NCBI GenBank assembly: GCA_963792415.1
Contig: CAWBVY010000006.1
Span: 792,582 to 856,581 of the forward strand
Source of the DNA: Candidatus Deferrimicrobiaceae bacterium
GTDB lineage: Bacteria > Desulfobacterota > Deferrimicrobia > Deferrimicrobiales > Deferrimicrobiaceae
Length of the DNA stretch: 64,000 nt
Direction of reading: 5' to 3'
This document shows positions 42,137 to 44,029 of this stretch, piece by piece. The translations under genes and the position numbers were made by a program. The notes beneath the pieces are model-generated. The model saw only the letters and a program-made list of their open reading frames with translations, did not search any database and was not told where the DNA came from. The first letter of the stretch is position 1. Every line of letters starts with the position of its first letter.

Positions 42137-42697
42137 CTAAAGCAGCTTCAGGAAAGCCGCCAGCCAGGCCGGGTGCGCCGGCCAGGCGGGCGCAGTTACA
42201 AGATTGCCGTCGACGTGGGCTTCGGGCCAATCCTTGGGGACATACTTTCCTCCCGCGGCCTCGACTTCGGGGGCACACGCCGGATACGCCGAGCATTCCC
42301 TTCCTTTGAGTACGCCCGCCGCAGCAAGAATTTGCGCCCCATGACAAACTGCCGCGATCGGCTTGTTGGAGGATGCGAAATGGCGGACCATCTCGAGAAC
42401 CCCCTTGTTCAGGCGCAGGTATTCGGGCGCCCGGCCACCGGGGAGGACGAGCGCATCATAGGAGCTTGCCTGGATCTCTGAAAACGTTGCGTTCAGACGA
42501 AAGTTGTGGCCAACCTTCTCGCTGTACGTCTGGTCGCCTTCAAAATCGTGGATCGCCGTCCTTACGGTCTCTCCCGATTTCTTGTCAGGACAGACCGCGT
42601 GCACCGCGTGTCCAACCATTTGAAGTGCTTGAAAGGGAACCATTACCTCGTAGTCTTCGACGAAATCACCGACGAGCATCAATATTTTCTTTCCCAT
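42137..42697 (-). CDS. DJ-1/PfpI family protein
   Basis: [36 protein letters not shown] (nucleophilic Cys), [11 protein letters not shown]. Confidence 0.92.
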
Positions 42698-42805
42698 ACC
42701 AGGTCCTCCTCTCTTTCCTGGAGTTCAGACTAACATGGATCACGGATCCGGTAGATAGGATGCGGCTTTTCCTGGGCGAGCCTCATCCAAACGGATCTTC
42801 CGTAC

Positions 42806-42884
42806 GCCTGACCGCTCCAGTTGAGCTGCGGACGCCCTTGGAGTTCGCCACCCGGGCCGTCACAGCCTCAAGCCGTTGTCAGGC
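42806..42884 (-). mobile_element. attC-like integron cassette recombination site (79 bp)
   Basis: Minus strand: R'' GCCTGAC (contains the TGA stop of the upstream ORF), L'' TTGAGGCTG with one extra base versus L' CAGCTCAA, R' GTCAGGC. Confidence 0.75.
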
Positions 42885-43325
42885 TTCACTGCGATCATGA
42901 ACGCTGAGCTCAAGCACTATTCGACCCCAGCCGCCACACTGTACTCCGACGTCAAAGCATGCGGCTCGCCTGAACCGCATTTCATTCGGATCAACCCCGG
43001 CGAGGAAGAGCTCGCCGGCAGTAAAGATCATCGAAGCAGATGCGCTGAGCGCGTAAATGCAGATCTTCTTCGGGCATCGTTTCGTGAGCAGGTTTCCAGC
43101 ACCATCAAAATAGAACTTGTCCCCGACCTTGTGTTGGCTGTTGCATCCCTCCGACGCCATGACTTCCAATACAATTGTCTTATTGTTCAATTCTGGCGCC
43201 TTCGAGAGGACATCCTCATTTCTCGGATTCTCCCGGAATACCTTCATCTCCTCATCCGTGTATCCGAGTCGTTCCTTCATGAATTTCCACTTGACCAGGT
43301 CCCATGCCTTGTCTCGGATGCTCAT
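42879..43325 (-). CDS. Cys-containing hypothetical protein, TIGR04076-like; putative gene cassette
   Basis: C.x3.HKVGDKF, CPKKIC..AL, C.D.G..CGGWG pattern; RBS GGAG; flanked by two attC-like sites. Confidence 0.7.
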   Translation of the reverse strand: MSIRDKAWDLVKWKFMKERLGYTDEEMKVFRENPRNEDVLSKAPELNNKTIVLEVMASEGCNSQHKVGDKFYFDGAGNLLTKRCPKKICIYALSASASMIFTAGELFLAGVDPNEMRFRRAACFDVGVQCGGWGRIVLELSVHDRSEA

Positions 43326-43352
43326 TTTTTCTCCATAGGTTGGTTATCGCAA

Positions 43353-43428
43353 GCCCAATGCCCAGGCTGAGCTGCGAGCACTCTCGGTTCTCCTCCGGTG
43401 AACCGTCAGCTTCAGCCTGTTGTTCGGT
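43353..43428 (-). mobile_element. attC-like integron cassette recombination site (76 bp, degenerate)
   Basis: Minus strand: R'' ACCGAAC, L'' AGGCTGAAGCTG versus L' CAGCTCAGCCT (one extra base), R' ATTGGGC (G of GTT changed to A). Confidence 0.75.
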
Positions 43429-43452
43429 GGCGCAAATCCATTGAACAATGTC

Positions 43453-43653
43453 CTATTTCTTGTCCTTGAACGTATCGCTGCAGAATTTCCCACCAATAAC
43501 CCAATTATCTTTTGGAACTTCATCGAATATGATAGTGACTGCTTCCACGGGACATTTCACACTATCTACCATCACGTCGGTTATGCCCTTAGCGATACAT
43601 CTTTTTAATTCGCTCGCCACTCCCGCCCACATCTCGACTCTGACGATTGGCAT
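43453..43653 (-). CDS. 4-oxalocrotonate tautomerase family protein; putative gene cassette
   Basis: MPIVRVEM (catalytic Pro1), K..I.KGITD.M, V.IIFDEVPK.NW.IGG; AT-rich; RBS GGAGG. Confidence 0.9.
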   Translation of the reverse strand: MPIVRVEMWAGVASELKRCIAKGITDVMVDSVKCPVEAVTIIFDEVPKDNWVIGGKFCSDTFKDKK

Positions 43654-43894
43654 GGCATACCTCCATTCTTAATCCCGGGTACGGTTAATGCCTCTTTCAC
43701 TGCACCGGGAATTCCGCTTGGCAGGTGGAGCAGGCAATCGATGCCGTGACGATACTCCTCGGTAGCGTCTTCGGTCAAGAGTGGGCCAGGACGACCCGGA
43801 TTCCGGCCCCTCCCCCTCCCCGCGACGTCCCGCTTCCAAAGGGAGACGATCCGGTCGGTCGTTTACGGTACGCGATCCGTTGCCGCAGGTACCC

Positions 43895-44029
43895 CGTGCG
43901 CACCCTACCGTCGCACGCTTTCCGGATCTACGGGAAATGCTCGGGCACAGCGACGTCTCGACGACGAGAATCTACACGCACGTACGGAACCGGCCGGGCC
44001 TGGCGGTACGCAGCCCCGAGGACGGGTAG
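43895..44029 (+). pseudogene. intI: C-terminal remnant of an integron-type tyrosine recombinase
   Basis: [29 protein letters not shown] matches the IntI tail (IntI1 recalled as [29 protein letters not shown]); TLPSHAF in another frame resembles HTLRHSF; no N-terminal part. Confidence 0.75.

Follow-up and report, generated by a model that had tools for sequence, protein, structure and literature searches.

We analysed a 64,000-nt stretch of DNA from a Candidatus Deferrimicrobiaceae bacterium (GenBank assembly GCA_963792415.1, contig CAWBVY010000006.1, positions 792,582 to 856,581 of the forward strand), hereafter called the window. A note made from the letters alone, hereafter the original prediction, had placed a relic integron at 42137-44029 of this stretch. 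An integron comprises an integrase gene (intI), an insertion site (attI) and an array of gene cassettes, each followed by an attC site. The locus contains the following features, given in window coordinates, with open reading frame abbreviated as ORF:

40455 to ~44443: variable island, between the FAA-hydrolase/rplM side and truA
42806-44029: integron core remnant, with intI on the plus strand and cassettes on the minus strand, the classical divergent layout
43453-43653, minus strand: cassette ORF 1, 66 aa, 4-oxalocrotonate tautomerase family (PF01361, E 1e-13; NF001966, 64.7 bits), GC 45%
43353-43428, minus strand: attC site A, 76 nt, R'' ACCGAAC ... R' ATTGGGC
42879-43325, minus strand: cassette ORF 2, 148 aa, no Pfam family, weak TIGR04076 similarity, GC 52%
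42806-42884, minus strand: attC site B, 79 nt, R'' GCCTGAC ... R' GTCAGGC
42137-42697, minus strand: DJ-1/PfpI gene, 186 aa (PF01965, E 5e-46; TIGR01382, 186 bits), GC 59%
43707-43922, plus strand: N-terminal piece of the intI relic, 72 codons, stop-free, in another frame than the C-terminal piece
43928-44029, plus strand: C-terminal piece of the intI relic, 33 codons and a stop, with the catalytic-Tyr motif and an IntI-type tail
43781-44029, plus strand: ORF carrying the IntI tail
43749-43778, minus strand: promoter-like site TTGACC-18-TATCGT inside the surviving intI piece, directed toward the cassettes, a candidate analogue of the class 1 cassette promoter (Pc)

Sites A and B are copies of one element. 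They share the minus-strand pattern CAAC-N5-GANGCTG-N0-3-ACGG-N26-CGCAGCTC, which occurs twice in the window and never in 100 shuffles. Scanned across 185,579 species-representative genomes, the pattern returned 53 loci, mostly single chance matches in GC-rich genomes. Eight matches in seven loci are clearly the same element and come from Deltaproteobacteria, Thermodesulfovibrionales, Pyrinomonadaceae and Gaiella metagenome-assembled genomes (MAGs) and from one unclassified bacterium. At the positions left free by the pattern these eight read GCCTAAC-AACAG-GCTGAAGC ... GCTCAGC-CTGAGC-GTTAGGC, which is textbook attC. A covariance model, R1, was trained solely on these eight non-window copies and searched with filters off. 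Two attC-like palindromes had been predicted here, and their coordinates proved to be the exact R''-to-R' spans; the covariance-model check proposed for them gave strong matches at both sites with this model from copies of other genomes. Site A scored 69 bits (E 2.9e-17) and site B 46 bits (E 1.2e-10), both on the minus strand and over the full model length (1-80). Site A is also 84% identical to the L021 site. The remaining R1 matches in the 64 kb are the reverse strand of site A (16.6 bits, E 0.034) and others of at most 14 bits (E 0.19 or worse).

Both sites display the attC layout, R''-spacer-L''...L'-spacer-R', within about 57-141 nt and 3' of a same-strand ORF: site A starts 24 nt past the tautomerase stop, and site B overlaps the stop of the 148-aa ORF. 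As had been predicted, each palindrome lies just 3' of a short, AT-richer minus-strand ORF with a ribosome-binding site. Sites of this type are, in accordance with the prediction, present after the tautomerase and the 148-aa ORF, but the DJ-1 gene has no attC of its own. GGAG-type ribosome-binding sites stand ahead of all three ORFs, and their GC contents of 45, 52 and 59% are lower than in the window as a whole (67%) and in the adjacent truA and asd (65-70%). Elsewhere, members of this family form same-strand arrays of 3-11 copies, one per small ORF, adjoining integron integrases; some of these arrays are rich in toxin-antitoxin pairs (L030, L146). In an alignment of 99 sites, 87% of cells are paired, compared with 28-43% when partners are slid, and 18 of the 27 pairs have changed on both sides. 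In such a toxin-antitoxin-rich array, that of L030, a long transposase-like ORF (1266-2492, minus strand) splits the array, and attC orientation is opposite on its two sides.

The AAC (R'') and GTT (R') triplets, with crossover between G and TT, are kept in 80 of the 99 family sites. Neither window site retains this pair: site A has AAC/ATT and site B GAC/GTC. In site A the crossover G of GTT is changed to A and R-box pairing is lost. In site B both triplets are altered with pairing kept, and small indels are found in the L region; its GAC/GTC combination is unique among the 99 sites, and the L074 homologue of site B, on the same 148-aa cassette, retains AAC/GTT. We would regard these triplet changes as decay of true sites and not as an argument against homology. 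Given the established role of the triplets, A and B have probably lost the capacity for recombination.

Folding of the bottom strand (window plus strand) gave -16.7 kcal/mol for site A (z -3.7) and -16.4 kcal/mol for site B (z -1.45). The z values of site B range from -0.65 to -1.45, which is not unusual. Since these energies are only modestly unusual, the significance of both sites derives from family membership and not from folding energy. The fold of site A is devoid of the R-box stem, which canonical relatives form at -20 to -24 kcal/mol. In both the family consensus and site A, the R''-L'' arm has one single-base bulge behind GGCTGA and another behind GCTG, which are candidate extrahelical bases.

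Next to the array, the plus strand carries what remains of intI. An IntI C-terminal peptide had been predicted at 43895-44029; its identity stands, although the convincing match starts at about 43928 and the relic reaches back to about 43707 in another frame. The peptide scores 37.8 bits with TIGR02249, the top-ranking NCBIfam model (model positions 282-313 of 315), and the match runs to the IntI-specific tail, in contrast to 24-27 bits over 20 residues with Xer models. The assignment to IntI rather than to XerC/XerD is thus borne out. Its best PDB match is VchIntIA (2a3v). Homologue search with the short relic returned fragments only, and the two most informative proteins, P0247 and P0249, came from an exhaustive search of representatives. 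P0249 is a full-length integron integrase of 422 aa (425 bits, cutoff 265) with an extra N-terminal domain of about 110 residues. P0247 (333 aa, 282 bits to TIGR02249) belongs to the same clade as the window gene and has about 90 residues missing in frame.

The C-terminal piece (43928-44026) is 85% identical to residues 301-333 of P0247 and 81% to residues 390-421 of P0249. The N-terminal piece (43707-43922) is 78% identical to residues 74-145 of P0247 (tblastn, E 1.7e-37) and matches residues 73-126 of P0249 (tblastn, E 1e-8). It covers the last part of the N-terminal extension peculiar to this clade, followed by ~20 residues from the start of the canonical IntI N-domain. The window gene lacks codons 1-73 as well as the entire stretch from P0247 residue 146 to residue 300 (~155 codons). 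Compared with the intact 422-aa P0249, about 255 codons are missing, among them those for the core-binding domain, for the region of the catalytic Arg and Lys and for the ALERKYP patch typical of IntI. With 37.8 bits against a TIGR02249 cutoff of 265 and the patch region deleted, the relic is far from the integrase of a complete integron. Relatives do have such integrases (P0249, 425 bits; L072, 452 bits), and the intI of L065 (212.6 bits) retains ALERKYP...WVRQYVFP. Close orthologues in relatives carry the ALERKYP...WxWQYVFP patch and pass or approach the cutoff.

Nucleotide homology between the window and its relatives begins at about 43703-43714, inside intI, which indicates that the window lost attI, the intI start and the nearest cassettes. 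Consistently, attI is absent from the window, and the region upstream of the tautomerase gene is devoid of attI-like or truncated attC sequence; the stretch from the tautomerase ATG to the relic (43654-43712), considered as a remnant of a truncated attC or of attI, scored about 0 bits, and this candidate was rejected. Apart from the relic, no other recombinase motif was found in the 64 kb.

Two further candidates concerning intI were discarded. The peptide VRTLPSHAF, considered as a remnant of box II (HTLRHSFA), aligns better with RTEDSYVF of the N-domain. A deletion or +1 frameshift after ...DVPLPKG, thought to be ancestral and shared by L065, L060 and the window, was withdrawn after mapping to P0247 and P0249 identified ordinary in-frame IntI sequence, made up of the N-terminal extension of this clade and what follows it. 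Since lesions differ between lineages, the inference of cassette turnover after integrase death that had been drawn from it was withdrawn as well. As a separate observation, the extra ~110-aa N-terminal domain of the clade (P0249 1-112, P0247 1-~110, window 43707-43840) resembles a SAM-like core-binding domain, judged by a Pfam PF13495 match on the L060 composite; many top representative matches are 420-470 aa long, compared with the usual ~320-340 aa.

Could the palindromes be other repeats, such as repetitive extragenic palindromes or miniature inverted-repeat transposable elements, or terminators, and the peptide the leftover of a phage or Xer-type integrase? The ordinary folding energy of site B would suit this explanation, and so would the databases: Pfam recognises in the peptide just generic Phage_integrase, below cutoff, and Rfam matched zero families in the whole window. 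Other repeats would, however, hardly show the R''-spacer-L''...L'-spacer-R' layout with GCCTAAC/GTTAGGC ends in relatives, be strand-specific with one copy after each ORF, and adjoin proteins passing the integron-integrase cutoff. The sole terminator-like match (43418-43450, plus strand) touches only the R'' end of site A. As to the peptide, a Xer origin was rejected because the IntI model outscores Xer models for the peptide and, by far, for orthologues; longer fragments nearly identical to the tail (P0005, P0006) reach 134-137 bits with IntI versus ~91-95 with Xer. This explanation is already contradicted, and we consider its chance negligible.

We then turn to the same locus in related bacteria, which were found by looking up identical proteins and by scanning metagenomes once with the FAA-hydrolase gene as anchor. 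Many contigs share flanks at 84-95% nucleotide identity, with rplM and the FAA-hydrolase gene on one side and truA-asd-leuB on the other. In L060/L061/L062, L065, L081 and L093 the flank consisting of the relic, TfoX, truA and asd is conserved at 84-95%, and the cassettes are unrelated. L060/L061/L062 contain at least four unrelated cassettes (glyoxalase and proteins of 79, 130 and 192 aa), each with an attC of 49-96 bits, and their intI is deleted in frame. L065 has six strong attC (50-94 bits) and two weak ones, next to an intI pseudogene. L146 has ten attC, its intI being P0247. L081, L093 and L063 carry other, different intI lesions. The divergence of intI from the array, as predicted for the window, is the same in the better-preserved L060, L065 and L146.

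The sequences of L060, L065, L081 and L093 agree as far as ...CCGTCTAATCAACTG|TT(A/G)G, and past G|TT they have nothing in common. A break precisely at G|TT is what insertion at attI leaves behind; in relatives attI reads ...AACTG|TTAGGC. Loss of the platform is seen too: truA abuts the FAA-hydrolase gene in L084, and in L067 an N-terminal piece of intI is joined to the TfoX end. In relatives further away (FAA-hydrolase identity of at most 79%), attC and this gene neighbourhood are both missing.

Best named homologues of Asd (86-91% identity) belong to MAGs labelled Thermodesulfobacteriota, Deltaproteobacteria and Candidatus Deferrimicrobiaceae, and one IntI-tail fragment comes from a Deferrimicrobiaceae MAG. 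The host is an uncultured Thermodesulfobacteriota/Deferrimicrobiaceae-like sediment bacterium. At phylum level, integrons have already been recorded in Desulfobacterota (PMC8618304), so that the statement of the original prediction that integrons may be little described in this lineage has to be softened. The search of the genome's relatives that it proposed yielded a complete intI (P0249, L072) and further attC arrays of up to 11 copies.

If the island had recently entered this single genome by horizontal transfer, as a mobile integron or genomic island, its GC content below that of the flanks would be explained, as would the lack of an integron between truA and the FAA-hydrolase gene in L066, the closest relative by flanks (93-95% nucleotide identity). 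Against this, an integron occupies this site, between these flanks, in at least seven related lineages. Moreover, the seemingly empty sites hold debris, namely the TfoX 3' end in L087, the fusion of the intI N-piece and TfoX in L067 and a cassette-type leader before the FAA-hydrolase gene in L066, and no transposase or insertion sequence is found near the island in the window. Recent insertion is therefore very unlikely.

Taken together, we read the window locus as a decayed remnant of a chromosomal integron, a gutted intI beside two cassettes with mutated attC, with a probability of about 0.9. Identity of the attC sites, identity and lesions of intI, synteny and array variability among relatives are established; recombination incompetence and expression are inferred. 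The prediction of a relic without a working integrase is even strengthened, as 73 codons, attI and the middle of the gene are deleted, the remaining pieces are out of frame and the attC triplets are mutated. Several points weigh against this reading. The training copies of R1 were chosen with a pattern derived from A and B, which means that part of the A and B score arises by construction, and R1 is a lineage-specific model. Non-circular support comes from BLASTN identity to attC in loci reached through proteins (site A versus an L060 attC, 83% over 75 nt, E 2e-15) and from agreement at positions that the pattern left unspecified. Further, 19 of the 99 family sites depart from AAC/GTT, so some tolerance is possible; genome coverage amounts to 64 kb and an intact intI may lie elsewhere; metagenome contigs may be chimeric at repeats; and the DJ-1 and glycosyltransferase genes of the island lack attC, which leaves the distal limit of the array uncertain.

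We compared the locus with known types of integron. Its two attC sites are 546 nt apart and the intI relic is the sole recombinase motif in 64 kb, which is the arrangement of a CALIN (cluster of attC sites lacking integron-integrase: at least two attC less than 4 kb apart, no functional intI nearby); a further likeness is that the cassettes have either unknown functions or functions other than resistance. An intI pseudogene within 10 kb was reported for 15 of 279 CALINs, 95% having no recognisable one (Cury et al. 2016, PMC4889954). The window locus resembles these 15 and differs from most CALINs in that a relic is adjacent. The pseudogene test of Cury et al. requires more than 50% profile coverage (PMC4889954). 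Since the relic covers far less than 50% of the IntI profile, this published screen would miss it and an automatic run would return a plain CALIN. As anticipated, ORF-level annotation would overlook the integron altogether and read three unrelated small genes and a hypothetical protein.

The locus also has the traits of a sedentary chromosomal integron, being found at one position clade-wide (flanks shared with L060-L062, L065, L069, L081 and L093) and having attC of one homogeneous family. By the criterion of Cury et al. 2016 (more than 19 attC, or a frequency of 100% across the species pan-genome) it is not a large array: two sites are present in the window and about 11 in the largest array of relatives, a maximum taken from contigs ending inside the array. 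Sedentary integrons of Vibrio contain tens to hundreds of cassettes and an active, SOS-controlled IntI. Homogeneous lineage-typical attC, comparable to arrays of the Vibrio cholerae repeat type, toxin-antitoxin-rich arrays in relatives and stable chromosomal position are in common with them; the array size of at most ~11 cassettes, two sites in the window and the dead integrase are not.

With the class 1 platform (intI1-Pc-attI1) the locus shares the divergent orientation, a candidate promoter inside intI on the opposite strand and, in relatives, GTTRRRY at the attI crossover. On the contrary, resistance cassettes and a Tn402 or 3'-conserved-segment context are missing, and the promoter is a consensus match alone. 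Its IntI is of another subfamily: P0249 scores 293 bits (cutoff 435) against NF011946 (PRK15417), an integron-integrase equivalog model that we take to be of IntI1 type.

The closest parallel is the Xanthomonas integron downstream of ilvD. It occupies a fixed locus, and most of its intI genes are inactivated by frameshifts, stops or large deletions (Gillings et al. 2005, as summarised in bioRxiv 10.1101/2025.06.18.660453 and PMC8618304). In the same summaries, arrays differ by lineage, some loci are genes without recognisable attC and some genomes have the platform deleted (bioRxiv 10.1101/2025.06.18.660453, PMC8618304). A fixed clade locus, dead intI, lineage-specific arrays, residual genes without attC and platform losses are all encountered here as well. 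The differences are the phylum, the position between truA and the FAA-hydrolase gene beside rplM, the additional deletion of attI in the window together with crossover mutations in both remaining attC, and the extra ~110-aa N-terminal domain of the clade IntI (P0249). The locus is thus a known type of decay in a little-studied lineage, and the main added value lies in the lineage and in the population series of decay states.

This series suggests how decay may have proceeded. In working relatives the mechanism is the usual one of integrons: IntI recombines the folded bottom strand of attC with attI (...CCGTCTAATCAACTG|TTAGGC), and promoterless cassettes stack up and are transcribed from a promoter situated in intI or close to it. 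In the window, the first 73 codons of intI and attI have been lost, and so have ~155 codons relative to the nearest orthologue (~255 relative to the intact 422-aa IntI), a region with nearly the whole catalytic domain and the IntI patch. The two surviving pieces are in different frames, and both attC have substitutions in the AAC/GTT crossover triplets. With intI, attI and attC all broken, the tautomerase, the 148-aa gene and probably the DJ-1 gene would be frozen and behave as ordinary chromosomal genes, perhaps transcribed from the promoter-like site surviving in the relic. The locus offers a well-documented case of integron decay outside Proteobacteria. Its population series leads from arrays of at least ten cassettes through internally deleted intI to full loss of the island and gives a natural order in which the integrase goes first, attI and proximal cassettes follow, and attC triplets erode last.

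A complete integron of the same attC family is present in L072 (3824-12290). It has a full-length intI (TIGR02249, 452 bits) and ten attC pointing the same way (the "inverted" layout), whereas integrons of this attC family in the window clade are divergent. L072 comes from the same metagenome as L061.

We wondered if the window locus itself could be a still-mobilisable CALIN, with a dead integrase in cis and an intact IntI elsewhere in the genome or community that excises and inserts cassettes. L072 would be a suitable source by attC family and shared metagenome. Every orthologous intI seen is defective in its own way, yet arrays differ from the first cassette on, and half of CALINs reside in genomes encoding IntI elsewhere (Cury et al. 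2016, PMC4889954). On the other hand, the deleted attI leaves the window without an insertion point, crossover triplets are mutated in both attC, six contigs of the same organism carry the identical arrangement, the 64 kb hold no further recombinase motif, and array differences could predate the independent intI lesions. Continued mobility of the window cassettes is thus unlikely, and decay to a frozen remnant remains our preferred reading.

A related idea concerns the clade as a whole: its platform may keep exchanging cassettes after the death of its own integrase, with the recombinase supplied in trans from another integron whose attC are of the same family. A distinct disabling intI lesion is found in each of seven lineages (window, L060, L063, L065, L081, L093, L146), four lineages are identical up to the attI G|TT and then have unrelated first cassettes, and many of their attC are still canonical; a donor of the required kind exists in the complete L072 integron, with full-length IntI. 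Against this, arrays may equally have diverged before each independent lesion. We put the idea forward tentatively, as one with the odds against it. If true, the window would represent the end state reached once attI itself was lost.

The cassette genes were examined separately. The 148-aa ORF recurs in arrays of L074, L079 and L094 with 83-86% amino acid identity and a ratio of nonsynonymous to synonymous substitution rates (dN/dS) of 0.05-0.10; recurrence and this ratio indicate that it is a real gene. Only in L074 does the match extend through its own attC (window 43376-42813). In L079 it runs from the upstream attC to inside the ORF (43424-42892), and in L094 it covers the ORF alone (43325-42901). 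Tautomerase, the 148-aa protein and probably DJ-1 are horizontally acquired accessory genes, now fixed.

DJ-1 is either a terminal cassette whose site was lost or a gene of the variable island that was never a cassette. Its copy in L077 (93% amino acid identity) is likewise the last gene after a weak attC and has none of its own. In the window, no minus-strand R1 match with E of at most 1 was found in the spacer behind DJ-1 or in the DJ-1 ORF (41857-42200). A third attC considered at 42030-42140 was rejected, as R1 searched on the minus strand at E up to 10 with filters off gave only an edge match at 42129-42164 (3.6 bits). An exact 11-mer, GAGTTCGCCAC, is present in the DJ-1/GT2 spacer (42075-42085) and in the loop of attC B (42841-42851), a score reached by 8 of 500 shuffles; it could be the last trace of a lost attC or chance. 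One same-species contig, L002, has at its positions 1665/1666 a 29-nt deletion (equivalent to window 42755-42783) in the DJ-1 leader, ~20 nt downstream of attC B; its TfoX 3' end has diverged, and the contig may be chimeric or a strain variant.

As to transcription, the prediction that cassettes have no promoters of their own holds for individual cassettes and not necessarily for the array. The promoter-like match at 43778-43749, a sigma-70-like consensus match alone, lies ~100 nt upstream of the tautomerase gene and resembles the class 1 Pc by position; it may act as a promoter. A consensus scan of the region found three sites, compared with 0.9 expected. In relatives its -35 hexamer is invariant and the -10 reads TATNGT, which conservation of the coding sequence could explain.

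Two other genes of the island flank the integron core:

40459-41856, minus strand: GT2 glycosyltransferase (NodC/chitin-synthase-like), 465 aa, inside the island, not bounded by attC
44108-44437, plus strand: TfoX_N-domain gene (PF04993, E 4e-18), at the right island edge beside the convergent truA

The GT2 3' end adjoins the left island boundary (~40454), its stop codon being 5 nt away. GT2 is present in L085 and absent from L065, L066, L077, L084 and L087. The best R1 matches in 40400-42200 score 9.4 bits (E 0.11) and 6.9 bits (E 0.57), lie inside the GT2 ORF and skip most of the model, so no attC can be assigned to this gene. Entry of DJ-1 and GT2 into the island is not explained by integron recombination.

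L060, L065, L069 and L081 retain TfoX_N. L063 has another gene in its place, L087 has only the final ~25 nt of it, and L084 lacks it. The gene beyond intI is variable: L063 has an unrelated 128-aa gene (451-837) and L146 a DinB_2 gene (11088-11597). Natural transformation has reportedly been linked to cassette shuffling (PMC12614218); given that link, a TfoX-domain gene adjoining intI may merit a look.

Outside the window clade, a frameshifted intI adjoins attC of the same family in L018 (5518-6303, minus strand), a Gaiella sp. MAG of actinobacterial affiliation. Among Actinobacteria genomes, Cury et al. 2016 (PMC4889954) reported no complete integrons.

Finally, the FAA-hydrolase gene at the island boundary (window 39786-40439, minus strand) looks cassette-derived. 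A copy with 89% identity lies in L072 (8484-9387) between two strong attC matches, in the array headed by full-length IntI. The leader G|TTAGAT-TGGTCATAATTAGGTTGTTTCATGAACAGGAG of this gene is common to L072, L074 (3990-4066) and L079 (9930-10006) and degenerate in L066 (9925-10006), L067 and L073; the window copy has been overwritten by the 3' end of GT2 up to -15. The ancestral array may have extended to rplM. The intergenic sequence between FAA-hydrolase gene and rplM, TTGACGGGGCCCGGCAAATCCTGTTAGAT (39702-39785, minus strand), is conserved in L066 and can be read as either the rplM promoter (TTGACG-17-TTAGAT) or the eroded 3' half of an attC ending in GTTAGAT.

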